The position numbers were made by a program, and so were the translations under genes. A stretch of 64,000 nucleotides of DNA from a virus (lineage: Duplodnaviria > Caudoviricetes): IMG/VR virus record IMGVR_UViG_3300021592_000001, positions 1 to 64,000 of that record. One strand, 5' to 3'. The notes under the pieces are model-generated. The model was not told the origin of the DNA, made no database searches, and saw nothing but the letters and a program-made list of their open reading frames with translations. This document shows positions 5,984-38,086 of the stretch, in pieces; within the stretch, counting starts at the first letter, position 1; each line of letters starts with the position of its first letter.

Positions 5984-6523
5984 TTGGAAATGAGAGTCCG
6001 TGTTTTACCTGAATACTGCCTGCGGGTGAAGAAGCTGGTGTATAACTCCCGAATACCCGACTTGTGCAAACTTCCCTATCCTGGACACCCGTCGGGATGT
6101 CCTAACTACGGTAAGAAACCTGACTGTCCTCCTCAAGCTCCATTTGTGACAGACATACTGGATGTGAACCGCAAAATGTATTTAGTATATTCGGAGTTTG
6201 ACCTGGAGAGTCATGTTCGCAGGATGAAGGAGAAACATCCTGACTGGTCAGATCGACAGCTCCGAAACGTGATCTACTGGCAGGGGACCTCCAAGTCTCA
6301 GCTACGTCATCGGGCTCTTCGGGTCTTGAGTATAGTCAATGCAGACGTGGCCATACTGAAGGGTGAAGCTCATGGCGTCAATCTATACGTCACCTGTAGT
6401 AAGTCTGGTCTCAAGCTAGAGCGTATTCGTGATCTTCGTATCTGTCATCATGTCGCTCTGGTCGGATGGCTGCCTGAGAACGTTTCCAACCTACCTAAAT
6501 TACCTTCCCTAATAGTCAGGTGA
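5984..6523 (+). CDS. DUF2284-like predicted metal-binding protein
   Basis: CKLPY..GCPNYGKKPDCPP and EAHGVNLYVTC motifs. Confidence 0.65.
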   Translation: MEMRVRVLPEYCLRVKKLVYNSRIPDLCKLPYPGHPSGCPNYGKKPDCPPQAPFVTDILDVNRKMYLVYSEFDLESHVRRMKEKHPDWSDRQLRNVIYWQGTSKSQLRHRALRVLSIVNADVAILKGEAHGVNLYVTCSKSGLKLERIRDLRICHHVALVGWLPENVSNLPKLPSLIVR

Positions 6524-6541
6524 CGGAAGTCTTTCCGTCAC
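6520..6541 (+). terminator. Perfect hairpin at gene end
   Basis: GTGACGGAA-GTCT-TTCCGTCAC. Confidence 0.55.
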
Positions 6542-6542
6542 T

Positions 6543-6650
6543 TGCCTACCTACTGATACCTATCACTTATTGATACCTGTCAATACCTGATACCTGTCCT
6601 ACCTGTCACTTATTGATACCTGTCATACCTGTCAATACCTGACACCTGTC
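6543..6650. repeat. Dense short-repeat array of (TGA)TACCTGTC(A)
   Basis: About ten imperfect TACCT(GTC) units in ~110 bp. Confidence 0.85.
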
Positions 6651-6851
6651 GTCCAGGGTCTTGTCCTACCCGTGACTGCATAACCTACCAAAATCATTAG
6701 GTTTTCCCAAAATCACCAAGAAAAGGTGTAAGTTTGTTATAAACCCTTAAAATCATTGGACTTTTTGGTAGGCAATTTCGCACTTAAAATGCTAAAAATA
6801 AGCCATTTTTACCAGCACTGGTCACGGCAGGGCGCCAAATTTGTGATTTTG

Positions 6852-6924
6852 TTTGTAAACCCTTAAAATCATTAGGTTTTTGGTCGCATGTTTTCTTGCA
6901 TATTATATATAAATATGTTACTAT
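6852..6924 (+). promoter_or_regulatory. Sigma70 early promoter with conserved upstream box
   Basis: TTGCAT(6896)-17-TACTAT(6919), extended TG; AAACCCTTAAAAT starts 39 nt before -35. Confidence 0.75.
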
Positions 6925-6984
6925 TTAGGCAAATAATAAATAACAGCTTGCTAAAAATAATACCTTGCTTAAAAGGAGGTAGGT

Positions 6985-7149
6985 ATGTTAGCTGGAAAGA
7001 CTAATTGTGAGACCTGTCCCTGGTGGGACGGTCATAGTGGATGTTGGTTAACAGGAGGCAGTAATTACAACTGTCCTCTGGAAGGGAAAGGGAAAGGAAC
7101 TAATCCCTCCGACGAGGCTCGCAAAGATTCCGAGCCTTCTGGGGGCTAA
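6985..7149 (+). CDS. 54-aa Cys-rich first early protein (MLAGKTNCETCPWW...)
   Basis: AAGGAGGT SD, directly downstream of promoter; below ORF-track cutoff. Confidence 0.55.
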   Translation: MLAGKTNCETCPWWDGHSGCWLTGGSNYNCPLEGKGKGTNPSDEARKDSEPSGG

Positions 7150-13330: not shown

Positions 13331-13404
13331 CCTTGTAAACCCTTAAAATAATACAGTTTTTTTGGGTAAGTTTGCTTGCATATTGTTTTATAATATGTTA
13401 TAAT
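13331..13404 (+). promoter_or_regulatory. Sigma70 promoter with conserved upstream box, driving the rimK-polX-ligase operon
   Basis: TTGCAT(13376)-17-TATAAT(13399), extended TG; AAACCCTTAAAAT 39 nt before -35. Confidence 0.8.
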
Positions 13405-13425
13405 ACTACCAGAAAGGAGGCAGCT

Positions 13426-14304
13426 GTGCATATACTTCTGCTAAGCAGCGGAAACGTTTATGGTAACGAAGAAATAGTCGCTTCCCTAAGAAAGCGGGGA
13501 CACGACGCAAAGTATGTCCATCTGTCTTCGATTTTCTTTGATACAGGAGGAGAAACATCGGTTAGGGATTTTGATGACGTTGATGCTGTTCTGGTTCGTG
13601 TTACTGGAAGCTACGCTAAGCATGCGAGACTGATGGCTATGTGGATGAGAAAGAAGAAGAAAATCGTAGTTGATAGCAGGTTAGCGAACTTCCAAGAGCT
13701 TGGGAAAATATATTCGTTGTTCGTCTTGTCGAGTCATGGTATAAGATGCCCCAGGACAGTGCATACAGCTAATCCCAAACTCTTGAAGAAGGCAATAAGA
13801 GAGTTTAAACTGCCTCTTCTTGTTAAACCCTTAGGAGGCAGGAAAGGTAGAGGCATAAAAAAATTTGAATCATACGAATCTGTTCTGAGGTATATATCCA
13901 GGAGAGACAGTAGATTCTTGATTCAGGAATACATAGAGGAGGAGGCTGACTTGCGAGTATTCGTGACAGGCGATAAGGCTTTGGGATGCATGAGGAAAAT
14001 CCCAAAGCAAGGAGAGTTCAGAGCTAACGTTGCGTTAGGGGCAAAGACGGAGGTGTATAATGCAGATGATAGTATTATGAGGCTGGCCATTAGGTCTGCA
14101 AAAATTTTGGGAATACAAATAGCTGGTGTAGACATCGCTATTGACAAGGAAGGAAAGCCCTGGGTACTGGAAGTGAATAGAGTGCCTCAGTTTAAGGCTT
14201 TCCAGAAAACGACAGGCATCGACGTTCCAGACGCTATAGCCGAATATGTCGATGCTGTAGTAAAGAAAGGAGGTGAAAAGTTCTGGTCAGAAGTTGTGAC
14301 ATAA
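13426..14304 (+). CDS. rimK: RimK/LysX-family ATP-grasp alpha-L-glutamate ligase
   Basis: KP.GG..GRG, IQEYI..DLRVFV, EFRANVALG, AGVDI, LEVN..P; GTG start after AAGGAGG. Confidence 0.9.
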   Translation: MHILLLSSGNVYGNEEIVASLRKRGHDAKYVHLSSIFFDTGGETSVRDFDDVDAVLVRVTGSYAKHARLMAMWMRKKKKIVVDSRLANFQELGKIYSLFVLSSHGIRCPRTVHTANPKLLKKAIREFKLPLLVKPLGGRKGRGIKKFESYESVLRYISRRDSRFLIQEYIEEEADLRVFVTGDKALGCMRKIPKQGEFRANVALGAKTEVYNADDSIMRLAIRSAKILGIQIAGVDIAIDKEGKPWVLEVNRVPQFKAFQKTTGIDVPDAIAEYVDAVVKKGGEKFWSEVVT

Positions 14305-14347
14305 TTTCAAAATTTCAAGATTAACATCAAAGGAAAAGGAGGTTATC

Positions 14348-14653
14348 ATGGCTAAGAAAGAAAAATTAGTTGTTCACAAAGGGGATATTATAAAGGGAAA
14401 AACAAGTGAAGGTAAAACTGTAAAGGGGACAGTATATAGAGTGAATAATATAAAGGGCTTCTGTAGAATAGAAACGAAGGCAGGAGAGAGATACAGAGTA
14501 GAGGTAGAGGATATACTCTCCATCAAGCAAGCAAGAGGTTCAGCTCCTAAGGAGCTGAAGCCAAAGAGAAGTAGTAAGAAAGAAAAGGAGAGTAAAAAAG
14601 CAAGAGCAAAGACGAAGGCAAAAGCAAAAGCAAAGAAAAAGAAGAGAGGATAA
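14348..14653 (+). CDS. Basic histone-like protein: SH3/KOW-like domain plus KAKAK tail
   Basis: Highly Lys-rich tail; N-domain paralogous to 8484. Confidence 0.6.
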   Translation: MAKKEKLVVHKGDIIKGKTSEGKTVKGTVYRVNNIKGFCRIETKAGERYRVEVEDILSIKQARGSAPKELKPKRSSKKEKESKKARAKTKAKAKAKKKKRG

Positions 14654-16300
14654 ATGAAAGTTCCCAATAGCAAAGTCGCTTCACTCCTTAGACAGATTGC
14701 TTACCAATATAAGCAGTCTGGAGACAAATGGAGAGCTATTGCCTACGGTAAAGCCTCCAAGACGGTCAGAGATCTTGCTTATCCGCTGACCGATGTAGAC
14801 ATTTCAAGTCTCAGCGGTATAGGAAGTTCGATAAAAGAAAAGATTGAAGAGATACTGGAAACAGGCAAATCTTCTTTGCTGGAAGAACTGCAAAAGAATG
14901 GTGTGCCTGCGTCTCTTGAAGAGCTAGAGAAGTTACAGGGAGTTGGACCGAAGACTGCAATGAGGTTGTGGAAGGAATACGGTGTTAAGTCTCTCCAAGA
15001 TTTGGAGGAGAATAAGGCTCTTCTCAAAAAAGAGCCTGAAATTGCGGAAGCCTTAGCGCTATATAAGAGAAGAAGAGAAAGGATTCCTGTCTACCTAGCA
15101 GATAAAGCTCTTCAGGAGATTTGTGCAATCCTTCGGTCTGGCGGATGCAAGTTCGTATCTCAAGCGGGTTCTTGCAGAAGGAAAAAGTTCCTCGTTCGAG
15201 ATTTAGATGTCGTAGTTGCTATTTCTGACAGTAAGAAGAATAAATTTATGAAATACGTGAGGAAGAACTTGAAAGTTGTAGCAGGAGGAGAATCTAAGTT
15301 GATATTCGAATATACGGTATCTGGTGAACCTAGGAATGGTGATATTGTTATGGTAACTCCAAAGGAAGCTGGCAATGCTATCAACTATTTGACTGGCTCT
15401 AAGCAGTTCAACATCGCAATGAGAAGACTAGCGCTCCGCAAAGGGTTTACGGTGAACGAACGAGAGACCAGAAGCAAATACAGCGGCAAGCGGATGCCTT
15501 CTGCTACAGAAGAAGACCTGTTTGATGTTTTGGATATCCCGTTCATTCCTCCAGAATGTCGCATAGACGGAACTGAAGTCGGAAAAGACCTTTCAGATCT
15601 GATTACACATGGAAGCGTTAAAGGCGATCTGCATATTCATACTACCTATTCAGATGGACTTATGAGCCTCAAGATGCTGGTTCGCTCTGCTAAGGAAGCT
15701 GGTCTTAAATTTGTAGGTGTAGCAGATCACTCCTATTCGCTCGGCGTGACTGGAGGGATGAAAGCTAAAGATGTGCCACGAATTAGGGATAAAGTTAAAT
15801 CTTTGCAATTTCCCGTCTACTTTGGCGTAGAAGCAGACGTTAAAGTGGACGGAAGCTTGCCTTACAAAAAGAAACTGCTTTCTGAGTTTGACTATCTGAT
15901 TTTAGCTACTCACAGTTCTCCAGACAGGAATCTGGAAAGCAGGCTGATTAGGGCTATAAAGAAAGTTGCTGGAGATAACCGAGTAATATTGGCTCATCTG
16001 ACTAACAGAAAGAGTGACCGTGAAGCGGCTGAAGCTAACTGGGACAATGTCTTTAAGATTTGCAGGAGGTATGATGTTGCTATTGAGATAAACGCTCAGC
16101 CAGATCGTATGGATCCTCCTGCTGACCTTATAAGGCGAGCAAAGCGGTTCGGATTGAAGTTCGTCATCAATTCTGACACTCATGATACAAGCATTAATCT
16201 ATATTGGGGAGTCATACAAGCCAGAAAGGGACTTCTGGAGAACCGAGACGTCATTAATACGTCTCATAAGTCCTTTAGGAAGTGGCTGGAAAGGAGGTGA
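14654..16300 (+). CDS. polX: DNA polymerase X family with C-terminal PHP domain
   Basis: HhH GIG/GVGPKTA, GSCRR..DLD, TGSKQFN; PHP HIHT.YSDG, DHS, NSDTH. Confidence 0.95.
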   Translation: MKVPNSKVASLLRQIAYQYKQSGDKWRAIAYGKASKTVRDLAYPLTDVDISSLSGIGSSIKEKIEEILETGKSSLLEELQKNGVPASLEELEKLQGVGPKTAMRLWKEYGVKSLQDLEENKALLKKEPEIAEALALYKRRRERIPVYLADKALQEICAILRSGGCKFVSQAGSCRRKKFLVRDLDVVVAISDSKKNKFMKYVRKNLKVVAGGESKLIFEYTVSGEPRNGDIVMVTPKEAGNAINYLTGSKQFNIAMRRLALRKGFTVNERETRSKYSGKRMPSATEEDLFDVLDIPFIPPECRIDGTEVGKDLSDLITHGSVKGDLHIHTTYSDGLMSLKMLVRSAKEAGLKFVGVADHSYSLGVTGGMKAKDVPRIRDKVKSLQFPVYFGVEADVKVDGSLPYKKKLLSEFDYLILATHSSPDRNLESRLIRAIKKVAGDNRVILAHLTNRKSDREAAEANWDNVFKICRRYDVAIEINAQPDRMDPPADLIRRAKRFGLKFVINSDTHDTSINLYWGVIQARKGLLENRDVINTSHKSFRKWLERR

Positions 16301-16388
16301 TAATAGGATGTGATAGCTTCAATCTTATTAGGCAATGAGGAATCATTATTAACAATAATAATCCTTTTAGTAAAAGGAGGTAAGTAAT

Positions 16389-17138
16389 ATGTTAAAGAAA
16401 TTAAGACACCATTTGTCCGAAGCATTAAAGATTGCTGACAGGCTTGAACTGGAAGAGGAAGAGCTTGAGGAGCTCGAAGAAGAAGAAGAGATGGAAGAAG
16501 AAGAGGAAGAGTCTAAAGGCAAACGTAAAGGTAAAGCTAAAGGCAAAGGCAAAGGTAAGAAGGTTGAAGAGGAAGAAGAAGAAGAGGAAATGGAAGAGGA
16601 AGAAGAAGAGGCTGAGGAAGAGGAAGCTGAAGAAGAGTCTGAGGAAGAAGAGTTGGAAGAAGAAGAATCAGAAGAGGAAGAAGAGTCTGAGGAAGAAGAG
16701 GAAGCTGAGGAAGAAGAGGAAGAAGAGGAAGCTGAGGAAGAAGAAGAGTCTGAGGAAGAAGAGGAAGAAGAAGAGGAAGCCGAGCTAGCTCTGAAGAAGG
16801 GAATGAAGGTTCGAGCCTACAAAGGTAAACAAGCCTTTGTAGGTCTCGTCCAAAAGGGTGGAAAGAAGCCAGTGATTAAGTTCAAAGGCAAAGGGAAAGA
16901 CCTCAGTGGATCCTTTTCGCCAAAAGATCTGAAGAAGCACAAAGTTGAAATTGTTCCAACTGTGGATATGCTCGATGAAGATGATAAAGTCAAAATGAGA
17001 TTCGGCAAGAAGGTTCTGACAGGGACTGTCGTAAAAACGACTAGGAGGAAAGCGACCATTCGATTCTCTTCTGCCAAGAAATACAATGGAGATTACGGCA
17101 ATAAGGACTTGGAAGAGAAAGCTACGCTGTTATCGTAA
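16389..17138 (+). CDS. Extremely acidic poly-Glu protein with two C-terminal SH3/KOW-like basic domains
   Basis: ~75-residue near-pure E tract from GAA/GAG repeats; AAGGAGG SD. Confidence 0.8.
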   Translation: MLKKLRHHLSEALKIADRLELEEEELEELEEEEEMEEEEEESKGKRKGKAKGKGKGKKVEEEEEEEEMEEEEEEAEEEEAEEESEEEELEEEESEEEEESEEEEEAEEEEEEEEAEEEEESEEEEEEEEEAELALKKGMKVRAYKGKQAFVGLVQKGGKKPVIKFKGKGKDLSGSFSPKDLKKHKVEIVPTVDMLDEDDKVKMRFGKKVLTGTVVKTTRRKATIRFSSAKKYNGDYGNKDLEEKATLLS

Positions 17139-17196
17139 GCCTAAAACAGGGACGGGGGATTTCATTCCCCCTCCCCATATTTAGGAGGGAGCAACT

Positions 17197-17904
17197 ATGA
17201 AATCGATCAAATTAAAGGAAACTATAGAAGAAGGGATCCCATTTCTGTCGATTAGTATAAAATCCCTTCCTCTTAAAATCGCAAAGAAAGCAGGTTTTCA
17301 AAAGAAGGGTAAGAGATGGTTTATGGAAAAGCCATCTGACTTCTCTGAGCTTTCCTCGAAGCTAGAGAAGTACGGGTATAGAGCTGTTATAGATTACAAA
17401 CCCGTGAAGCCAAAATCTACCAACAAAGTAAAACGTCTTCTCTCTGTCTATGAAAAAAGAAAGAAAGAAATGGAGGAAGCGGAAAAGAGGCTGAAAGAGA
17501 TAAGGGCGAAGCTGGAAAAAATTGTAAAGAAGCAGGGTGCTAAGCGGAAGCCTGGAAGTGACGATTCTGTCCTAATCGTCGGTGACACAAGAATACATTA
17601 TTGTTTTGTAACGGGGAGAAGAACATGGAAAGGAGAAGAGGAAGGCGTAAAGTGGTTGATGAAACATGGGTTTAAGAACTGTATAAGAAAAGCTATCAAT
17701 AGAGATGCCTGGGATGATCTAAAAAAAGAAGGGAGAATACCTGTTAATGTGATCTCGAAAGTTGAGAGGAGAGCAGACCCTTCGTATCGCTTATTCATTC
17801 GCAAGGTCAGTGAACTTGTTTGTCCGAATTGTGGGACGGATGTTTCCCGTAGAGATAAATTCTGCAGGGAATGTGGTAACAAATTGAAAGGAGGTTTATC
17901 ATGA
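17197..17904 (+). CDS. Basic coiled-coil protein with C-terminal zinc ribbon
   Basis: CPNCG..KFCRECG. Confidence 0.65.
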   Translation: MKSIKLKETIEEGIPFLSISIKSLPLKIAKKAGFQKKGKRWFMEKPSDFSELSSKLEKYGYRAVIDYKPVKPKSTNKVKRLLSVYEKRKKEMEEAEKRLKEIRAKLEKIVKKQGAKRKPGSDDSVLIVGDTRIHYCFVTGRRTWKGEEEGVKWLMKHGFKNCIRKAINRDAWDDLKKEGRIPVNVISKVERRADPSYRLFIRKVSELVCPNCGTDVSRRDKFCRECGNKLKGGLS

Positions 17905-18539
17905 AAAATCCTATTGATCTTGAAGACTTGAAGGTTTCTAAAGAGTGGCGAAAGACCGAAGACTTTGAGGCGGTCTTCGCTTTTATAAAAGCATCAAGAC
18001 CTATACGTTTAAAAAGAGCCTCTGTAGATACTCTTGAGGAGTGTCCATTTTCCGGCTGTAAGGAGCAACTCTCCGAAATCGTTCTGGAAAGTCCTGACGG
18101 CAAATGGAAATTTCAGGACAGTCTTGAACACCTGATAATGATGCATGGGGTTGTTCCTTGTGATGAATTTGTGTCTGATGCAAAGTCATGGGTGAACTCG
18201 TCGAAGCTTTCTTTACGTGATATTGTAGCTATTGATATAATTACAGACAGAATCCTTATAGAGTCTGAAACTGTTGAGGAGATTCTGTCGTCTCTCCCTC
18301 CAGGCAAAGGAATGGACGCAAAACGTTCAATAGAGCGTATCATAAAGGAGTTGGGGAATCTCAGAGATGCAATGGAGACGATAACTAACGGAGTTAAGCA
18401 AGAAGAAGAGGAATCCGAGCCTGAAGCCAAGCAGGAAAAAGAGGAGCCTGAACCTGAACCTGAAGAAGAATCCGAAGCTACCAGTCTTGACGACGTGGAA
18501 AGAGTTGGGAAAAAGAAAAAAGTTAAAATCAAAAAGTAG
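17901..18539 (+). CDS. Hypothetical protein with acidic tail
   Basis: SD, overlap with upstream stop. Confidence 0.6.
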   Translation: MKNPIDLEDLKVSKEWRKTEDFEAVFAFIKASRPIRLKRASVDTLEECPFSGCKEQLSEIVLESPDGKWKFQDSLEHLIMMHGVVPCDEFVSDAKSWVNSSKLSLRDIVAIDIITDRILIESETVEEILSSLPPGKGMDAKRSIERIIKELGNLRDAMETITNGVKQEEEESEPEAKQEKEEPEPEPEEESEATSLDDVERVGKKKKVKIKK

Positions 18540-18601
18540 TCGGGAGTCAAATCGTTGCTCCCTCCTCTCGGCGGAGCCTCGCTCCGCCGATGCTCCCGAC
18601 T
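18538..18601 (+). promoter_or_regulatory. Structured leader upstream of ligase carrying an anti-SD
   Basis: AGTCGGGAG/CTCCCGACT closing stem, inner TCGGCGGAGC/GCTCCGCCGA hairpin, unpaired CTCCCTCCT; SD GGAGG follows immediately. Confidence 0.55.
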
Positions 18602-18614
18602 GGAGGTTAGTTTT

Positions 18615-19961
18615 ATGTATGGATTTGCTAAGGGAATGTCTCCTGTTGAGAGAGCGTTTAAGACTCTGGACTGTCTGGAAAGGGAGTCAGGCAGGAACAA
18701 GAAGCTTGACATTCTACAGTCAGCTTCCGATAATAAGATACTGAAAACCCTGATAGTGAAGGCTTACGACTGGAGAGTGAGATACGGTATAAGACCGTCT
18801 GTTCGAGTGGGTAAGATTAAGACCAGCTCAGTTTCAGAAGTAAATTACAAAAGGTTTCTGAAACTTACTGACAGATTGGCTAAAGGCTTGTCTGGAAACA
18901 AGGCAATCGCTGCTGTGGATAAATTCTTTTCCAGATGTTCTGACCTGGAAAAGAAGTGGTATTCGAGAGTGCTGAATCGAGACTTGAGAGTAGGATGTGC
19001 GTCTAAAACTTTCAATACAATATGGGAAAACTTGATTCCAGAGTTTGGAGTTCAACTTGGAATACCGTTCGAAAAGTACCTTGAAAAGGGGAAGTTGAAG
19101 TTTCCTCTCTATGTCGAGCCTAAATACGACGGAACACGAGGCGTATTTGTGAAGAAAGGCGATAGCGTGTCCTGTTACAGCAGACGTGGAACTGATATGA
19201 CTGAGATTGTTGATTTTGCAGTGAAGCCGCTATCGAAGGTCATGCCTGACGGTTTGCTGGATGTCGAGTTCCTCGCTGCATGGTCTAAGAAGGACAAGAA
19301 GAAATTTAAGGACGTTTGGTCGAAAACGCAGACGCTGTTGAAGCGAGGGAGGAAGAAGGAAGGCTATGTGGCGGATAAAGACTGGAAGGAATATGTTAAA
19401 AGCAATATAAGAATCATGGCCTTCGACTTGGCCAATCCAGATGTATTTAAATCAAGTAAAGGATACACCGATCAGACACCTCTCAGAAAGAGGAAAATCA
19501 GGCTAAAGAAACTTGTAAAGAAGCTCCCAGAGTTCTCAAGAGCGGAACTCGTTCCTTTCACTAAAGTCTTCAGCAGGAAGGAACTTGATAGATTGTATAA
19601 CAAGTATATAAAGGAAGGATACGAGGGAGTGATGATAAAAGACCCATCATCTCCGTATTCCATAAGCCTTTCTAATTATCGTCCCAGTTATTGGATCAAA
19701 AGGAAGAAGTTTGTGACCAATGATTACAAGATAGTCGCTGTAAATGAAGGTTCTGGAAGACTGAAAGGCACACTGGGATCACTAACGGTATTGAATGAAG
19801 ATGGAGAGAAGCTCAATGTTGGAACAGGACTGAGCGATAAGGAAAGGGATCTCCTCTGGAAAAAGAGGAAATCCTTAATAGGGAAGTATATAGAGGTAAA
19901 AAGGCAGAGTGGTTCTTCCAAAAAGAGATTTCCATCTTTCAGGATCAGAGAAGATAAGTAA
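18615..19961 (+). CDS. lig: ATP-dependent DNA ligase
   Basis: EPKYDG (motif I), EGVMIK, W.K.K, OB-fold VGTGLSD, RFP. Confidence 0.95.
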   Translation: MYGFAKGMSPVERAFKTLDCLERESGRNKKLDILQSASDNKILKTLIVKAYDWRVRYGIRPSVRVGKIKTSSVSEVNYKRFLKLTDRLAKGLSGNKAIAAVDKFFSRCSDLEKKWYSRVLNRDLRVGCASKTFNTIWENLIPEFGVQLGIPFEKYLEKGKLKFPLYVEPKYDGTRGVFVKKGDSVSCYSRRGTDMTEIVDFAVKPLSKVMPDGLLDVEFLAAWSKKDKKKFKDVWSKTQTLLKRGRKKEGYVADKDWKEYVKSNIRIMAFDLANPDVFKSSKGYTDQTPLRKRKIRLKKLVKKLPEFSRAELVPFTKVFSRKELDRLYNKYIKEGYEGVMIKDPSSPYSISLSNYRPSYWIKRKKFVTNDYKIVAVNEGSGRLKGTLGSLTVLNEDGEKLNVGTGLSDKERDLLWKKRKSLIGKYIEVKRQSGSSKKRFPSFRIREDK

Positions 19962-21975: not shown

Positions 21976-23014
21976 ATGAAAATCAACCTTGATTTAGACG
22001 ATCTTGTTCAGTTGAATGAGGAGAGTCAGGAGATGATTGGCGACGCAGTCGCTAAATTCCTGGAGAATAGGCTTGGTTCTACCGATTTCTGCTACAATTA
22101 CTCTGTAAAAGTGGAAATCAATGTCCCAGAGAAGAGGTAAGAGAAATGTATGCGTATTTATCCTACAGGCATGGCAAGCCTCGTATTGAGAAATGTCGCA
22201 CATTTAAAGAGGCTTTACGGAGCTTTCTCTCCGACTTTGACAGCGGAGAGGCCTACGGAATAGGTATCTACGTCGAATGTGACAAAGCTCTGTATCTGCC
22301 TGACTTCAAAGACCGTGAACAATCAGTTTCGGAAGCAAAGAGGTTGGGTTATGAAGTCATGAACGTCTACACTTTTGAAGGAATCGCTGTGTGATTGCAT
22401 ATTTGAAGAGGACACTACTATGAAAACAGAAGAAGCACTAAACCAACTCAAGAACGAAGGTTACACTGTCTTAAAAACTGGCATAAATGACAACGGAGAC
22501 GAAGTGGCTCTACAAATCATAGAGCAAGTCGACGAAAATGTTTATGTCTACCGTTTTGCTAGGAAGCCTTACGTAGATCCAAAAGAACTAAAAGAAATAT
22601 TTATAGGAGAGACTATTGAGGACGTAAGGGACTTCCTTGAGAAAATGAGAACGCACCTCCAAGAGATAAAACGTAAATGGCATCTCATACTTGAGAAAAT
22701 TAGGCATTCTCTAAAGGAGGCGATAAAGGATGATAACGATGATGAAGAAGATATTCGAGAACAAGATCAACAAGGCTATAGACGAGGAAAAACAAATGTC
22801 TAGAGACTTATTCACGGTATTGATGGATTACGACGGGGACTGGAGCATTGAGAAGGAAGGGGGAATCATCAAAATCACTCTCACCAGAAGAGATAAATCA
22901 GTCGTCAAGAAGATCAGCGAGTGTCTTTCAGTGACGCAGATAAACTATCTCAGAAGCAAGCGTTATGTTACAGATCTTGTCAGAGATCTCATTGAGAGGT
23001 TAAAGGGAGAGTGA
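21976..23014 (+). CDS. Four small hypothetical genes (21976-22140, 22146-22394, ~22420-22803, ~22739-23014)
   Basis: SDs and coupling. Confidence 0.5.
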
Positions 23015-23018
23015 GTCT

Positions 23019-24092
23019 ATGAGAAATTTAACTGTGGTAGTCGGGGGACAGTTCGGTAGCGAAGGAAAGGGAAAGGTAGTCGCACATCTATGTCGAAATT
23101 ACAGATTTGATGCATGTGTGAGAGTAGGAGGACCGAATTCAGGACATACTGTCACTCTGAACGGTAGAAGGACAGTCCTAAGACAAGTCCCTGCTGGAGT
23201 AGTGAATCCTCATACGCAACTCTTTATAGCGAGTGGATGCTTGGTGGATCCTGAAATTCTACAAAGAGAGATTAAGATGCTAGGTCTGTCGCCAGACAGA
23301 CTGAAGATCGACAGAAACGCAAGTCTCCTGGACAGGTCTGACGCTGAATTCGAGAGAAGAATTGGACTTGAGGGTAGAATTGGTTCTACAGCTACAGGAG
23401 TTGGCTCTGCGGTTATCAAGAGAATCCTGAGGAAAGACAGCAGTATCATTCTCGAAAAAAGGATTGATGACTATCCTTTCCTTATTCCGTATCTTGCTGA
23501 CGTCTCCAAGGAGATTAACCGTCTGTGCGATGCGGGGAAGAGCACGGTAATCGAAGGAACACAAGGCTTCGGTCTATCCCTTTACCATTCTTCTTATTAT
23601 CCCTTCGTCACAAGCAGAGATGTAACTGCTTCTGGTTTTCTGAGTGAAGTCGGAGTTAGTCCCCTGCTTGTAACAGACATTATCCTTGTCATCAGAACAT
23701 TTCCTATCAGAGTAGGAGGGAATTCTGGAGACCTTCCTAATGAGATTGACTGGGAAACAGTCAGAAAGGAAAGCGGTTATCCTCACGAAATTAAGGAGCT
23801 TACTTCTGTCACAGGTAGAGTTCGTCGAGTTGCACGACTTGATATCGGTCTCGTGAAGAAAGCTGTTCAGATTAACAGGCCGACTTTTATTGCTTTGATG
23901 GGAGTCGATTATCTTGACTTTAAGAACAGAGGAGTGAGAAGTCTTGAAAGTCTCTCTTCTAGGACTCATGACTTTATTACTTCCCTTGAAAGGGAAACGG
24001 GTATCCTCGTATCTTTGATAGGGACTGGTCCGAGTGACTTTGAGATAATTGATCTAAATGGGAGAAGCAGAAAAGGAGGGAAAGAAGTATGA
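23019..24092 (+). CDS. purZ: PurZ0-type N6-succino-2-amino-deoxyadenylate synthetase (adenylosuccinate synthetase homologue of the Z-base pathway)
   Basis: GGQFGSEGKG (Ser replacing the PurA catalytic Asp), IRTFPIRVGGNSG, ELTSVT.RVRR, and Asp retained in LMGVDY (GTP-type); short archaeal-like 357 aa. Confidence 0.85.
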   Translation: MRNLTVVVGGQFGSEGKGKVVAHLCRNYRFDACVRVGGPNSGHTVTLNGRRTVLRQVPAGVVNPHTQLFIASGCLVDPEILQREIKMLGLSPDRLKIDRNASLLDRSDAEFERRIGLEGRIGSTATGVGSAVIKRILRKDSSIILEKRIDDYPFLIPYLADVSKEINRLCDAGKSTVIEGTQGFGLSLYHSSYYPFVTSRDVTASGFLSEVGVSPLLVTDIILVIRTFPIRVGGNSGDLPNEIDWETVRKESGYPHEIKELTSVTGRVRRVARLDIGLVKKAVQINRPTFIALMGVDYLDFKNRGVRSLESLSSRTHDFITSLERETGILVSLIGTGPSDFEIIDLNGRSRKGGKEV

Positions 24093-24770
24093 AATACAAT
24101 CTCGGGAAAAGATTCAGGACTCCATTCTCTTTCCTTAAAGAGAAATCAAAGGCGATTATGTATCTGCTCTCAATCATAGAGCAGAGGCTGCTGTCAGATT
24201 TTCCTTCCGAGGCAGAATCTATAAAGAGGATTTTCAGAAGGCTCTATTCTACACTGCGAGCCTATTCAAGAGGGAAAGGAAAGTCTCCAGGGATAGAGTG
24301 GGAACATATAAAAGCAGCTGCCGATAATTCTCAGATCGCTATTGACAGGTGCATTCGCTGCTTGGAGAATGACTTCTCGCTGGAAGGGATAGAAACAGTT
24401 TTGGATATTCTTCCTTTAGGACCAGATTGTTGTCCGTTCTGTTTGAGTAAGGTCTCCTGTAGCGAGTGCGGATACGCTACCTTGCACAAGAGATGTGGCG
24501 AAGCAAATTCGTCGATAACGAAGTTATATGAAGCTTTAGGTGATTTAAAAGGCAAGATTCACAATCTTAAACAAAAAGGAGGCAAGAATGAAAAAGACAA
24601 AAGAGAAGAAATCTATCAAGGTCATAGCCAAGTATGAAAGAGACACGAAGCGGTATCACAGGTTCTCCTTCCGTAAGGAGAACGGTTCTGATGTAGTGTC
24701 TGGAACTATCTACTTTTCCAAGGATATGGATATTCCAGACAAGGTGATTTTGAACACTAAGGTAGAATAG
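24089..24770 (+). CDS. Two hypothetical genes (24089-24637 with Cys cluster; 24588-24770)
   Basis: CCPFC..CSEC..C; SDs. Confidence 0.5.
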
Positions 24771-25189: not shown

Positions 25190-25498
25190 ATGCGAATACT
25201 ATATTCAAAAAGAGGAACTGGTAAGACAAGAGAGGCAATCTCGATCGCTTCCAAGACATCTTCTCATATAGTCTGTGAAGGGAAGAAAAGAGCCTCTGAA
25301 GTCTTTTCCATGGCAAAGGAGATGGGAATGGATATTCCATTCCCACTGACCTATGATGAGTTTGTAGAAGGTAGGTTCTATGGCATGAGCGTAAAATCAT
25401 TTGTCATTGAAGATGTTGACCTGCTGATTCAGAGGTTCGCTCGAGGCATTCCAGTCAAATTAATAACTATAACAAGGGAGGGAGAAGATCATGAATAA
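25190..25498 (+). CDS. Small degenerate P-loop protein
   Basis: RGTGKT; VIEDVD. Confidence 0.55.
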   Translation: MRILYSKRGTGKTREAISIASKTSSHIVCEGKKRASEVFSMAKEMGMDIPFPLTYDEFVEGRFYGMSVKSFVIEDVDLLIQRFARGIPVKLITITREGEDHE

Positions 25499-25838
25499 AC
25501 CGTCCAGTCAAATATTTCTATTTAACGCATGGGTTGATAATACCAATTATCTCCTGAACAAAGATTTACTTAAGATGAAGGCTGTCCGTTTTTGCAGAGA
25601 TGTCGGCTTGACTATAGTCTCTACGGATGAGTTTGTTTTCCCTAAAACTTCAGGCATCACTATGACGTTCATCATAGCTGAGTCAAGTCTATCGATTCAT
25701 ACATGGCCAGAAATGAACTACATTCGCATTGTACTGGATTCATGCAAAGCCTTAGAACCTTTGGAGGTATCGGAATCCCTTCGCAGGAACTTTGAAATTC
25801 CTGCAGAGCGATCTGATTTGAAAGTAATTTTATGGTAA
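25491..25838 (+). CDS. Pyruvoyl-dependent S-adenosylmethionine decarboxylase (SpeH/class 1b) homologue; substrate uncertain
   Basis: IIAE|SSLSIHTWPE self-cleavage motif and downstream catalytic Cys (DSCK); His after ES replaced by Ser. Confidence 0.85.
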   Translation: MNKPSSQIFLFNAWVDNTNYLLNKDLLKMKAVRFCRDVGLTIVSTDEFVFPKTSGITMTFIIAESSLSIHTWPEMNYIRIVLDSCKALEPLEVSESLRRNFEIPAERSDLKVILW

Positions 25839-26279
25839 GTGACCATGAAGGGGAGAAGGAAAGAAAAATACTATCTGAAGGCTTACTTCAAGCCTTTCGA
25901 TGTCAAGAAGACTGCTAGATTTGTCAGGAAGGTGAGGAAGAAGCTAGGTCTTTCGCAAGGAGAACTTGCAATCCTATTCGGCAGGGCAAGGTCTACACTT
26001 TCCAAGTGGGAGAACGGTCAGGCTATTTGTCCTGGAGACATAATTCTAGGTCTTCAGGACTTGGTTAAGATGGTAGAGAGAGGGGAATTTAAAATAAAGC
26101 GTAAGAGCCATAAGCTCAAGATCGTGGACGAGCGAAGGAAGATTGAAGAGGAAGAGGAAGAGGAACTGGAAAGTGTAGAATCTGTCCTGGAGAGAAAGTC
26201 CTTGGAAGAGGAAGAGGAAAAGGAAGACTTGGAGGTAGAAGAGTATATTGAAAGACTTAAGAAGGGAGGTAGTTTATGA
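25839..26279 (+). CDS. XRE/Cro helix-turn-helix regulator with acidic tail
   Basis: RKKLGLSQGELA..FG.ARSTLSKWENG..P. Confidence 0.85.
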   Translation: MTMKGRRKEKYYLKAYFKPFDVKKTARFVRKVRKKLGLSQGELAILFGRARSTLSKWENGQAICPGDIILGLQDLVKMVERGEFKIKRKSHKLKIVDERRKIEEEEEEELESVESVLERKSLEEEEEKEDLEVEEYIERLKKGGSL

Positions 26280-26674
26280 AATCACTTCTCGTGTCTCTAT
26301 TGTTTGTGACTGGGATAAATCTGGCTGGATCGGACGGGAACATGATTCCGTGGCCGAATCTGGTTGGAGTTGGGATGGCTGTATTGTCAATGTTAATAAT
26401 GGATGATGGAGGGGAAATCGAATGAGACAGGAGTACTCTGTAGATGAATGGAGATCGATCATTCAGAGGCTGTTAGACGTGACACACCTGATTCTACAGA
26501 AAAAGTATAAGTTTATTGCAGAATGGAACATAATACCGAATGCTGTCTTCATACCATATAAGATGCTGCCTGAAAAGGTAAAAGAATTGGAGATAGCTGA
26601 ATTGAGTGTCGTTATAGGCTATAACATAGACGACATACACGTCGGGTTGATTTCTTAGAAAGAGGAATTCCATA

Positions 26675-27736
26675 ATGGATTGTGATTACAGTCCTATATT
26701 CCAGTCCAAGACCAAAGAGAGCGATATCTACGACGAGTTTGTCGAGTTTTCGAATCTGCAGTATGCTACACTTGACTACGATCCGTTCCATCCGATGCTT
26801 GTGAAGCTGCAAGAGAACCTGGAGGAAGAGGAATCTCTTTGGATGTCAACATTGTATATGGCTTTCTACAACATAGGCTCTTGTTACTTTGCGTTTCTGA
26901 GGAATCCGAAACCTCTATCGGAACTGGATGATGTTCTCGGGAAGCTTCCCATCGGATTACAGAGAAGGAATCTGAGGGGTGGTGAGGTGATAAAATACTT
27001 CCACCGCTTCAGGAAGAAGGTAAAGCCTTATGGAAGTATCAAGAACTTTCTGACTCACAACTTTACAGGTTCTAAGGAGAAGGACTGGTTCATACTGTTA
27101 AAGAATTTGAACTCTGTCTGGGGTAATGGCAGATGGGCATCTTTCACTCTTGGAGAGATTTTTCAGAAGGTCAACAAGTTGCCTGTGCTCCCGACAGATA
27201 TAATGAATGAAAACAGTAGCGGTCCGAGGACAGGACTGGAACTGTTGATGGGAAAGGCGAAAGGAAAGACCAAAAAGGAGAAGCTGGCAGATCTGAAAGC
27301 TAAGGCCGACGCTCTCTTTAGGATGGTTCGTCCGAGAATTAAGACGAACATATTCTACCTTCCTAAGAATCATTATGACTATGGTATGATGGAAAGTCAG
27401 TTATGTGACTTTAATTCTATGACTAAAGGTCTCTACTATACAGGCAGAGACATAGATCGGGATCTGGAGCGTATAATAAGAACGCTGAGGGTCGCAGCTG
27501 ATGTTGGAATAGATATAAGACCAGCGAAGCGACTGTGGGAGATAAGGAGGGAAGTGTTCCCCTCCGAGCTCCTTGGAGAACTACATGGATGGTATAAGAG
27601 ACATACCTATGCAAAGAAGTTCTACAAAAACTTCGGGATAATAGCTAAGAGTCACAAGGAAATACGTGACTATCTTGGAATATGGAGAGAGGATAGACTA
27701 GATGACAGGAAGAAAATTGCTAGGGGATTATGGTAA
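26675..27736 (+). CDS. Amino acid:DNA transferase (aGPT-PPlase clade 2 / ADDT), thymidine hypermodification enzyme
   Basis: DYDP, RRNLR, GNGRWA, SSGPRTGL, ESQLCDFNS..G.YY.G.DID, W..R...FP..LGE motifs. Confidence 0.85.
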   Translation: MDCDYSPIFQSKTKESDIYDEFVEFSNLQYATLDYDPFHPMLVKLQENLEEEESLWMSTLYMAFYNIGSCYFAFLRNPKPLSELDDVLGKLPIGLQRRNLRGGEVIKYFHRFRKKVKPYGSIKNFLTHNFTGSKEKDWFILLKNLNSVWGNGRWASFTLGEIFQKVNKLPVLPTDIMNENSSGPRTGLELLMGKAKGKTKKEKLADLKAKADALFRMVRPRIKTNIFYLPKNHYDYGMMESQLCDFNSMTKGLYYTGRDIDRDLERIIRTLRVAADVGIDIRPAKRLWEIRREVFPSELLGELHGWYKRHTYAKKFYKNFGIIAKSHKEIRDYLGIWREDRLDDRKKIARGLW

Positions 27737-28952
27737 CCTACTCCACGAAGTTCTATCCAGGACGGATATGAAGATTGAAATAAATGACGGGAAGAGAGTG
27801 AAGAAAGTTTGCGTAATAGTAGGTTCTTCACGCTCAGGTTCGTCATTACTGAAGAGAGTTCTGAGCAACAGCTTTGACGTGGTATCCCTGTCAGGAGAGG
27901 AAGAGCCTTTCTACATCCTGTCTAGGAATGGATTCTCATTTTCCAGTGACAGCGATAGTTTCAATTCAATTAGGAATGCTGACCTTATCCATAAGTTGTT
28001 TTATAATGACTTTAGTGTTAGAGATACTAAGATTAGTTTGGAAGATATCTCGTTTAGATGGAAGAATAGACTGCTTCTGCAGCTTCCTCGGTTTATGATT
28101 GATGATTGTTTTGTTAGTAAAGTAGATGAGCTGTTGAAGAACGTTTACGATAAGTTCGAGTCAGATGAGAAGTCCTACGAGCTCAAGTCAGCAATCTTCA
28201 TAAAGAAGCTTCTCGGGAAGAGAGCTGGTTATTACGATATTATTGCTTCCAATTCAGGAGTTACATTTGAGGAGACATTCAAAGTAGAAGAGCCTCCGTT
28301 CGTGATCCCCCCATTCGGAAGGATGTTCAGAGAGAGCGAGGACTTTGACAAGGTCTTCTTATTCAAGACACCTCAAGACTGCTATCGGATTGGGATATTC
28401 GAACAACTCTATCCCAATGCAGAGATATACTACGTATGTCTCCTTCGTAACTACGCCTCTGTAGTTAATGGGTTGATGGATGGATGGCTGTGCGATTATG
28501 GATTCTTTGCTCACAATCTAAGCATGCACGGGGAATGTCTAGACATAGATGGGTACACGAATGTGAAGCCGTACGGAAAAATATGGTGGAAGTTTGATCT
28601 ACCTCCGAACTGGCATCACTTTAAACGAAAGCCCTTGTTAGAAGTTTGCACCAATCAGTGGGTTTCGGCCTACCGCCATATAATTGATAATGTCGTGAGA
28701 AGGAAAAAGAATCATCTAATCGTCAGGTTCGAGGACTTTATTCTTAATCCACAAGAGCAGACAGATAGAATAACTGAGTTCTTGGGTATATCACCTATTG
28801 TAGTACATGACTTACCATTAGTAATGATCACGGAGACTCCGAAGCTAAAACGTTGGAAAAAGCGAGAGGATCTGCTGATTCCTCCTCCAGGAGAAGTAAT
28901 AGATATAATGGAGATACTAAGATATGACTTGGACATCGAAACTTGGCTATGA
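27702..28952 (+). CDS. PAPS-dependent sulfotransferase-fold protein
   Basis: 5'-PSB loop IVGSSRSGSSLL, LFKTP, 3'-PB LLRNYASVVNG, IVRFEDFI.NP...ITEFLGI. Confidence 0.85.
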   Translation: MTGRKLLGDYGNLLHEVLSRTDMKIEINDGKRVKKVCVIVGSSRSGSSLLKRVLSNSFDVVSLSGEEEPFYILSRNGFSFSSDSDSFNSIRNADLIHKLFYNDFSVRDTKISLEDISFRWKNRLLLQLPRFMIDDCFVSKVDELLKNVYDKFESDEKSYELKSAIFIKKLLGKRAGYYDIIASNSGVTFEETFKVEEPPFVIPPFGRMFRESEDFDKVFLFKTPQDCYRIGIFEQLYPNAEIYYVCLLRNYASVVNGLMDGWLCDYGFFAHNLSMHGECLDIDGYTNVKPYGKIWWKFDLPPNWHHFKRKPLLEVCTNQWVSAYRHIIDNVVRRKKNHLIVRFEDFILNPQEQTDRITEFLGISPIVVHDLPLVMITETPKLKRWKKREDLLIPPPGEVIDIMEILRYDLDIETWL

Positions 28953-29841
28953 CCCACACTGTCCGAAGGAGGGAGAATTCTATTGTGACAGTGAATGGGG
29001 TGAGCTTCAAGTTGTTCTGCTCCTGTTTTTGAGTAAGGATGCGTTCGAGGCAATCGGAGATAACTATAAAGATGCTATGTTCATTTCCAAACCGAATTAC
29101 GAATTGGTTATGGAAGAGTTCTGGAACTATGTTAATCTTCTTAAGAAGCTGGGTATCAGAGTTCTTGTTCACGAAGTTGATGAATTCTTCCCCAACATAT
29201 TTTATGCGAGGGATCTGGCTGTCATAACACCAGACGGACGCTGTATTCTTGCGAACCCAAAATATAGGATCAGAAAGGGGGAAGAGAAGGTTTTATATAG
29301 GATTCTTCTTTCTACCTATAATAGTGATGAAAGGAAGTATATTTTTGCTCGCAGCACAATGGAAGCGGCAGATCTGTTCTGGTTGAACAACAGATCTGTT
29401 ACAGTTTCCGTGGGCAATAGAACTTCGCCCAAGTTCGCTGACGAATTGAAGACTCTATATCCAGACCTGGAAATCCGACTGTTTGAAGCACTGCCAGAAC
29501 AAGTTCCTCAACATATTCTCGGTCATAAACATATCGTTTCTCATGACTGTATAATTTTGAGGAGTGAGTTAGGAGGCTGTGAAAGTCTGGGATTCAAAAA
29601 AATTATCCATTTGAAGGAGAATCATGAAGTCGTCAATAGATTCTCTATGAATATTGTAACTATCGATTCTTATGAGATAGTGATGCCCGATGGGTGTGAA
29701 GAGACGAAGAGGATTTTTGAGTCTCATGGGATAAGATGTCATACCGTCTATATAGAAGAAATACTGAAAATGGGAGGAGGACTGGCATGTATGACATTAC
29801 CTCTAAAGAGGAAAGAGTATTTCCTTAAGAAAGGAGGGTAA
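28924..29841 (+). CDS. Amidinotransferase / arginine deiminase / DDAH (pentein) family enzyme
   Basis: PNIFYARD, R.GEE, MEAAD, GNRT, His (QHIL), C-terminal GGGLACMT.P catalytic Cys. Confidence 0.9.
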   Translation: MTWTSKLGYDPHCPKEGEFYCDSEWGELQVVLLLFLSKDAFEAIGDNYKDAMFISKPNYELVMEEFWNYVNLLKKLGIRVLVHEVDEFFPNIFYARDLAVITPDGRCILANPKYRIRKGEEKVLYRILLSTYNSDERKYIFARSTMEAADLFWLNNRSVTVSVGNRTSPKFADELKTLYPDLEIRLFEALPEQVPQHILGHKHIVSHDCIILRSELGGCESLGFKKIIHLKENHEVVNRFSMNIVTIDSYEIVMPDGCEETKRIFESHGIRCHTVYIEEILKMGGGLACMTLPLKRKEYFLKKGG

Positions 29842-37177: not shown

Positions 37178-38086
37178 ATGATAAAATCTGTTTTAGTTGT
37201 CGGAGATGTAATGCTAGATACCTATATTATAGGGGAAGTCAACAGGCTCTCTCCTGAAGCTCCAGTTCCTGTCTTGAGAGTGACCAGAGAACTTAATTAT
37301 CTTGGTGGAGCAGCAAATGTTGCAAGGAACTTAAGAGAATTGGATATGGACGTCACACTAGTTGGCTTAATTGGAAAAGATAAAACGGCAGACACTCTCC
37401 TTAAATTGCTGAACAAGTATGCAATAAATAATTTATTATTGAGCAAAGAGGAAGTCATAACAACTCGGAAAATCAGGCCGATGACCAATTATGGCAAAAC
37501 CCAATTACTAAGGATAGATGAAGAAAATGCAGTTAAAGTTAATATTGACGAAATTGCGGATGAAGTCAAGAAAATAGCTGCTAAATCTCAATTCATAGTA
37601 GTTTCAGATTATGCAAAGGGGGTAGTTACTCCATTGCTGATGCGGATGGTAGATTCTGTAAATGTTCCTATCGTATTAGATCCAAAACCGATAAATTCTG
37701 AAATATATAAAAAGATGAAAAATATAATGGTTTCAACTCCGAACACATCCGAACTGAAAGCTATGACTATTCACCCAACTACATATTCAAAGTATGTTTT
37801 TGAAACAAAAGGACCTGAAGGGATATGTGTTCATCGTAAAAATAAGAGTTCTTTCATAGTAAAACCTGAACGAGTTGAAATCTTCAATGTTATAGGAGCA
37901 GGAGACGTCGTAACAGCAGTCGTAGCCAAGTGTATTTCTGCGGGGATGACAATTGAGAAAACTGCTGCAATAGCATGTGCTTGCGCTTCCAGAGCGGTTA
38001 CAGAACCATGGACTGCTATAGTTGACAAATCACATTTCTATAACGTCTCAAACGAATATAAAGAAATGGAAACATGGGAAGTTTAA
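37178..38086 (+). CDS. RfaE/HldE domain I-like heptose-7-phosphate kinase (PfkB family)
   Basis: VVGDVMLD.Y..G.V.RLSPEAPVPV, GGAANVA.N, SDYAKG, DPK, TPN, GAGD. Confidence 0.9.
   Translation: MIKSVLVVGDVMLDTYIIGEVNRLSPEAPVPVLRVTRELNYLGGAANVARNLRELDMDVTLVGLIGKDKTADTLLKLLNKYAINNLLLSKEEVITTRKIRPMTNYGKTQLLRIDEENAVKVNIDEIADEVKKIAAKSQFIVVSDYAKGVVTPLLMRMVDSVNVPIVLDPKPINSEIYKKMKNIMVSTPNTSELKAMTIHPTTYSKYVFETKGPEGICVHRKNKSSFIVKPERVEIFNVIGAGDVVTAVVAKCISAGMTIEKTAAIACACASRAVTEPWTAIVDKSHFYNVSNEYKEMETWEV

Follow-up and report, generated by a model that had tools for sequence, protein, structure and literature searches.

A phage-borne member of the PurZ superfamily from a mostly cellular sister branch, without recognisable Z-synthesis helper genes

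To our knowledge, all biochemistry of Z-DNA synthesis comes from two viral branches of synthetases, PurZ and PurZ0, each of which is accompanied by a fixed set of helpers editing the nucleotide pool. In one survey, dutZ is present in 98 of 98 PurZ0 genomes (PMC12884076), usually accompanied by dmtZ and DUF5664. PurZ homologues have been predicted in over 2000 viruses (PMC13128860), and one more homologue is therefore unsurprising in itself. The gene described here is a viral member of a third, much larger branch (clade II), which is otherwise found in bacterial and archaeal cassettes, and it is unaccompanied in the present phage, whose genome measures at least 188 kb. What is new is the mostly cellular branch, the absence of every known helper from the record of a jumbo-size genome, and the position of the gene upstream of an AdoMetDC-ADDT-sulfotransferase module. 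The window, that is, the whole stretch of DNA analysed, covers the initial 64 kb of an IMG/VR virus record that is 188,322 bp long and has a CheckV completeness of about 73%.

The synthetase gene and its active site

The synthetase is encoded by an ORF that matches Pfam Adenylsucc_synt (PF00709). The features of the gene and of its immediate surroundings are as follows.

23019..24092, plus strand: clade II synthetase gene of the PurZ superfamily (non-Asp, PurA-like), encoding 357 aa (PF00709, E 1.5e-53; trees; PDB search)
23003..23011, plus strand: ribosome-binding site AAGGGAGAG, 8 nt 5' of the ATG at 23019 (read from the sequence)
23055..23072, plus strand: P-loop G13-S14-E15-G16-K17-G18, with Ser in place of the PurA catalytic Asp13 (sequence, alignment)
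23694..23729, plus strand: loop R226-T-F-P-I-R-V-G-G-N-S-G237 (differential-conservation table, alignment blocks)
23802..23804, plus strand: codon of T262, aligned with phiVC8 T262 and S-2L T273 of the 2-amino-group pocket; Gly in canonical PurA
23907..23909, plus strand: codon of the guanine-reading Asp, D297, which corresponds to D333 of E. coli (alignment)
24089..24637, plus strand: downstream ORF, 182 aa, Cys-rich, orphan; translationally coupled through an ATGA overlap of the synthetase TGA with its own ATG

The ORF upstream of the synthetase gene ends with a stop codon at 23012-23014, and the AGGAGG site of the coupled downstream ORF lies within the 3' end of the synthetase gene. The downstream ORF matches no Pfam, NCBIfam or PADLOC family and found no homologue but itself among 5.8 billion proteins, so that there is no case for a helper role. 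Further downstream, genes of a pyruvoyl AdoMet-decarboxylase-like protein, ADDT (PF18724), a sulfotransferase-like and an amidinotransferase/DDAH-like protein stand in a row on the plus strand (25491-29841) and look like a thymidine-hypermodification-type module; the synthetase gene lies 1.4-2.6 kb upstream of the AdoMetDC-ADDT-sulfotransferase cluster. Elsewhere on the plus strand, three genes close together at 13372-19961 form a repair-like set that is unusual for a phage; they encode a RimK-family ATP-grasp ligase (13372-14304), a PHP-domain PolX (14654-16300) and an ATP-dependent DNA ligase (18555-19961). A PfkB-family kinase at 37178-38086 (plus strand), whose best match is the heptose-7-phosphate kinase domain RfaE-I at 214 bits, below the cut-off, may be a sugar-building gene, along with others in the phage genome.

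The original prediction had read three features in the active site, and all three are borne out by alignment. The catalytic Asp of PurA is replaced by Ser: residues 13-18 read G-S-E-G-K-G, with Ser14 encoded by AGC at 23058-23060, and S14 of phiVC8 and S23 of S-2L fall in the same column. The R-x-x-P-I-R-V-x-x-N-S-G loop is present at residues 226-237. The guanine-reading Asp is retained as D297, which aligns with the Asp of PurA and of the PurZ0 of phage Archimedes. [quoted passage not shown]

In a word-based search covering 5.8 billion proteins, the 120 best homologues are 54-65% identical to the window protein; 87 of them carry Gly and 33 carry Ser where PurA has Asp13, and none carries Asp. 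Judged by these sequences, none of which retains the residue that is 99% conserved in true PurA (PMC12884076), the Ser of the window protein is not a chance substitution. Ser and Gly have replaced each other many times at this site within clade II, eight Gly-type genome rows alone accounting for six changes on the tree. Because the two residues interchange repeatedly, the selected feature seems to be the loss of the carboxylate and not the Ser hydroxyl, which agrees with the 3.7 Å distance reported for S23 of S-2L.

A differential-conservation screen, which asked for at least 90% conservation of a residue in archaeal PurA and for a different conserved residue in the non-Asp clade, yielded 13 positions. 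Six of them have one conserved residue across both short archaeal and long bacterial-type PurA and another in the non-Asp clade, and the window protein is of the PurZ type at all six (S14, E112, R226, I230, T262 and G335). R226 and I230, both superclade-specific, lie in the 226-237 loop, which also bears a one-residue 'GNSG' insertion common to the window protein and PurZ0; canonical PurA has K..T..G-(A/S)-GPF instead. The Val preceding the loop lies against C2' of dGMP in S-2L PurZ (PMC8342488). The dGMP-pocket triad of the window protein is F12/S14/T262, against W/F, D and G in canonical PurA. [quoted passage not shown] The general catalytic residues K17, N40, H43, Q182 and R269/R270 are invariant across the subclade of the window protein. 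The base pocket consists of G295, D297 and Y298, against F295, N297 and Y298 in phiVC8, and R267, at the position of E. coli R303, is Arg as in PurA, with Lys found in phiVC8 PurZ and in PurZ0.

Phylogenetic position and cellular relatives

Overall similarity places the window protein nearest to archaeal PurA. In a sequence search of the PDB, the PurA of P. horikoshii ranked first with 225 bits, followed by the PurZ0 of Gordonia phage Archimedes (7VF6) with 159, phiVC8 PurZ with 125 and S-2L PurZ with 85. An AlphaFold model (pLDDT 78.6) has 5K7X and then 7VF6 as its top fold matches in Foldseek; as a prediction, it confirms the PurA fold and ranks archaeal PurA over PurZ0, with no discrimination between substrates. 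The protein falls below the cut-offs of both relevant NCBIfam models. It scores 227.4 bits on the PurZ model NF038379 (cut-off 300), where phiVC8 reaches 397, Wayne 367, S-2L 350 and Archimedes 325, and other clade II members 219-242. On the archaeal PurA model NF003295 (cut-off 368) it scores 333 bits, within the range of other clade II members (256-348) and below the 510-586 bits of 29 true archaeal PurAs.

In an IQ-TREE phylogeny of 85 sequences (LG+C20 PMSF), which agrees with a FastTree of 156 rows, the non-Asp sequences form one clade of 70 rows together with the reference PurZ and PurZ0 proteins (support 100/100). Its sister is Asp-type archaeal PurA (99/94). The non-Asp clade divides into the mostly viral clade I (97/91), which contains the PurZ and PurZ0 references, and clade II (97/94), most of whose members derive from bacterial or archaeal assemblies and the rest from viral contigs. 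Within clade II, the window protein falls into a mainly Gly-type subclade of 13 rows (100/95), where its sister is a Gly-type metagenome protein with 65% identity; its branch is long, 0.52 against 0.15 for this closest relative. A tree constrained to unite the window subclade with PurZ0 is worse by 46.45 lnL units (p-AU 0.0496), a borderline rejection of a grouping named after the tree had been seen.

The original prediction of a PurZ0-type enzyme distinct from ordinary PurA thus divides in two. The distinction from PurA stands, with Ser for Asp13, the F12/S14/T262 triad and a place in the 100/100 superclade of PurZ and PurZ0, apart from Asp-type PurA. The assignment to the PurZ0 branch does not, with the protein in clade II against clade I for PurZ0, a score of 227 bits against the 300 asked of PurZ, and no DutZ. 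On the phylogeny, then, the window protein is a PurZ-superfamily member of a sister branch rather than of the PurZ0 branch. Clade II is probably the same group as a small number of Ser- or Gly-bearing archaeal sequences that were placed basal to PurZ0 plus PurZ (PMC12884076).

Further relatives were collected by pattern scans of IMG/VR contigs, GTDB genomes and JGI metagenomes, in which the Ser/Gly state was part of the pattern and is not independent evidence. Five cellular genomes with a Ser/Gly paralogue also encode a canonical Asp-type PurA; from this gene content, the Ser/Gly protein is a paralogue with another job and not the housekeeping enzyme. One Archaeoglobaceae MAG encodes the paralogue, and it is the only one to do so out of 41 genomes sampled across its phylum.

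Clustering of the neighbours of PurZ-like genes across 160 loci revealed a recurrent cassette. A DCD/dUTPase-fold protein of about 290 aa is encoded in 101 of the loci, directly downstream in 73, and takes the form of an NDT-dUTPase fusion (DmtZ-DutZ-like) in some viral contigs. The gene order in the window's subclade and in most cellular loci is an RNase-H-like gene (PF13482, about 540 aa), the Ser/Gly synthetase and the DCD-like gene; in some loci a deoxynucleoside kinase follows the DCD-like gene, and in one (L083) an adenylosuccinate lyase stands just upstream. Examples of the cassette are L082:8380-12490, L083:7026-12019, L084:131-4336 and L085:8217-12560, as well as L214-L242. Its hosts are Acidobacteriota, Dehalococcoidia, Archaeoglobaceae, Methanosarcinales, Clostridia and other MAGs, and include complete chromosomes with a normal PurA. 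The RNase-H-like partner occurs in cellular or metagenome loci only, and in none of the IMG/VR set. PADLOC names no system for the window protein or the cassette proteins, the weak matches of the cassette being limited to a candidate family, a Cas-associated DEDDh exonuclease model and VakA, and a literature search for this gene combination returned nothing. The company of deoxynucleotide enzymes (DCD/dUTPase-like, dNK and sometimes PurB) indicates deoxy substrates for the clade, and the cellular cassette may serve something other than Z-DNA synthesis.

Helper genes and polymerase of the phage record

DatZ and MazZ had been predicted to be missing near the gene. Neither is recognisable in the window, and the absence extends to the whole 188,322-bp record, which is about 73% complete. 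The Pfam models PF00692 (dUTPase), PF05014 (NDT), PF03819 (MazG), PF04447 (DUF550, dATP-dGTP_PPHyd), PF18909 (DUF5664, dGTP_diPhyd_N) and PF12917 (YfbR-like) have no match at E<=1 in the record, while control genomes respond to them. DutZ and DmtZ are likewise absent from these 188 kb, and DatZ and MazZ of S-2L and DatZ of phiVC8, used as queries, matched nothing in the record. Six-frame translations of the 188 kb were also searched with HMMs for the DCD-like, dNK, PurB and RNase-H-like partners, which found nothing, nor did an HMM built from 118 PurZ-adjacent Dut/DCD-like proteins in the same, roughly 73% complete record.

Two generic proteins came into question as substitutes. An HD protein encoded in the replication module (whole-record 76866-77462, minus strand) is not YfbR-like and is unmatched by the DatZ of S-2L or phiVC8. 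At E 1e-15 it matches an HD family whose members lie near PurZ in 10 viral contigs, there too within replication genes and not beside PurZ, and the protein is a weak candidate for a DatZ substitute. A NUDIX protein at whole-record 121437-122195 was set aside as generic.

The family A DNA polymerase (whole-record 177912-180608, plus strand) carries an N-terminal UDG-superfamily domain and a 3'-5' exonuclease domain, and is not DpoZ-like. Its nearest isolates are the non-Z jumbo phages Lu11, PaBG and Dickeya JA29, at about 27% identity; in pairwise matches, only the Acinetobacter phage PolA among four Z-phage PolA references was hit (E 0.002). An N6/N4 DNA methyltransferase that contains an intein may be encoded by a 607-aa ORF at whole-record 67192-69015 (minus strand), which weakly matches DNA-methylase, LAGLIDADG and intein-splicing families.

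Large viral contigs besides this one (81-312 kb) also hold clade II copies that lack a recognisable helper beside them; the arrangement is therefore recurrent and no accident of assembly. In one 81-kb viral contig (IMGVR_UViG_3300029908_000015), the second gene downstream of a lone clade II copy encodes a homologue of the anti-CBASS protein Acb1 (PF23474, E 1e-25; L002:11391-11879). The 735-kb uncultured phage LR756503.1 (L166) encodes a long bacterial-type PurA with an intact catalytic Asp (G-D-E-G-K-G) at 6001-7146. This shows that a genuine PurA can occur in large phages and that a PF00709 match alone is not a sign of PurZ. The record CAKLQF020000006.1 (L167), labelled 'Acinetobacter phage MD-2021a', has alaS, epd, hisZ, purA and crp in a row and looks like a bacterial chromosome mislabelled as a phage.

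Proposed function and comparison with known systems

The F12/S14/T262 triad, the loop insertion, D297 and the invariant catalytic residues make a GTP-dependent dGMP ligase the activity best supported by the residues. We assign a probability of about one half to the reading in which the gene encodes an active PurZ-superfamily enzyme, most likely one that ligates aspartate to dGMP at the expense of GTP and thereby supplies dZTP synthesis, with a substitution that may be partial; the substrate, the phosphate donor and any Z in the DNA we infer from homology. Such an enzyme would phosphorylate O6 of dGMP with GTP, and aspartate would displace the phosphate, giving N6-succino-2-amino-2'-deoxyadenylate. 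The adenylosuccinate lyase (PurB) and the nucleotide kinases of the host would convert this product to dZTP, which the UDG-exo-PolA of the phage or another, non-selective polymerase would insert opposite T. The replacement of A by Z would be expected to be partial, because the record encodes no dATP-clearing or dGTP-to-dGMP enzyme of a known type, unless the generic HD and NUDIX hydrolases or genes in the missing 27% or so act as helpers. Cloned Z-clusters point to incomplete replacement when dATP is not removed (PMC8342488). Counted against Z synthesis are the score below the PurZ cut-off, the absence of helpers, a polymerase that is not DpoZ-like and the cassette setting of the nearest relatives.

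The last of these points, together with the lack of all the enzymes that make Z replacement efficient, is what would be expected if the enzyme manipulated nucleotide pools and the phage DNA stayed A-containing. As the cellular cassettes may also do, it would then drain or convert dGMP, or make dSMP or dZ nucleotides as inhibitors or signals, in the service of host takeover, of competition with other phages or of interference with a similar cassette in the host. We regard this as rather unlikely: although the closest relatives, at 54-65% identity, reside in cellular cassettes and not in Z-clusters, a lone synthetase making dSMP would still give dZTP through host PurB and kinases, as cloned Z-clusters do (PMC8342488), and lone copies from clade II recur in other large viral contigs.

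The identity of the F12/S14/T262 pocket to that of phiVC8 PurZ, the one-residue insertion after V232 common to PurZ0 and the deoxynucleotide-enzyme partners of related loci speak against a different substrate, such as ribo-GMP, 7-deazaguanine, xanthine or another 2-substituted 6-oxopurine nucleotide undergoing aspartate-based amination. An enzyme of this kind may feed the adjacent DNA-hypermodification genes, and the gene does lie 1.4-2.6 kb upstream of the AdoMetDC-ADDT cluster, yet none of the related loci shares any gene with the window neighbourhood. The toggling between Ser and Gly implies that the side chain itself is no reader of specificity, and R267 is Arg as in PurA, where E. coli R303 contacts the 2'-OH, with Lys in phiVC8 PurZ and PurZ0; even with these points in its favour, we consider such a substrate unlikely. 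An ordinary auxiliary PurA, boosting AMP synthesis from IMP through adenylosuccinate during infection, would account for the intact GTP site and for archaeal PurA being the best single match in the PDB and NCBIfam. It would have to do so lacking the essential Asp13, scoring 333 bits where the cut-off is 368 and true archaeal PurAs reach 510-586, separated from Asp-type PurA by branches of 100/100 and 99/94 support, and belonging to a type of paralogue whose genomes keep a canonical PurA, all of which renders it very improbable. An inactive protein, or some other explanation, takes up the remaining probability.

Synthesis of a dZTP precursor by a GTP-dependent clade II enzyme acting alone would supply 2-aminoadenine without the known helpers, and the ADDT-sulfotransferase module 2.6 kb downstream would hypermodify thymidine, so that both partners of the A:T pair would be altered. 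This combination is a speculative proposal, and an improbable one by our estimate; if true, it would also give the large cellular family of clade II its first assigned function. The activity of the branch bears both on the role of the cellular cassette and on the installation of Z without DatZ, MazZ or DutZ. Should the enzyme not use dGMP, the prediction of over 2000 Z-genomes from PurZ homology alone (PMC13128860) would be too generous.

Of the described enzymes, archaeal short-type PurA (P. horikoshii 2D7U/5K7X; NF003295) is the best overall match of the window protein (225 bits, TM 0.84-0.89), with the same length and GTP site; the window protein differs from it by the replaced catalytic Asp, the clade-defining substitutions, a score below the cut-off and a separate position in the tree. 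With the ATP/dATP-dependent PurZ (phiVC8 6FM1, S-2L 7ODX; identity about 27-31%) it shares the non-Asp superclade and, in phiVC8, an identical F12/S14/T262, whereas it has a GTP-type NTP pocket (D297 against N/Q, G295 against a stacking Phe), and the phage lacks the DatZ and MazZ of these systems. PurZ0 (Archimedes, PDB 7VF6, and Wayne; identity about 35-37%) resembles it in having Ser at Asp13, an F/S/T pocket for dGMP, an FPIRVxGNSG loop that includes the insertion, a guanine-reading Asp still in place and a short architecture of the archaeal type. It is set apart from PurZ0 by its sister clade and by 227 bits on NF038379 against 325-367, and its phage by a genome of at least 188 kb against about 44 kb for the PurZ0 actinophage, and by the lack of DpoZ-1 and of a neighbouring DutZ, DmtZ or DUF5664. 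The phage copy also departs from the cellular Ser/Gly paralogues, having no cassette partner in 188 kb and Ser where most of the subclade has Gly; these clade II proteins of Acidobacteriota, Dehalococcoidia, Archaeoglobaceae and other MAGs, at 54-65% identity, are nonetheless its true nearest relatives.
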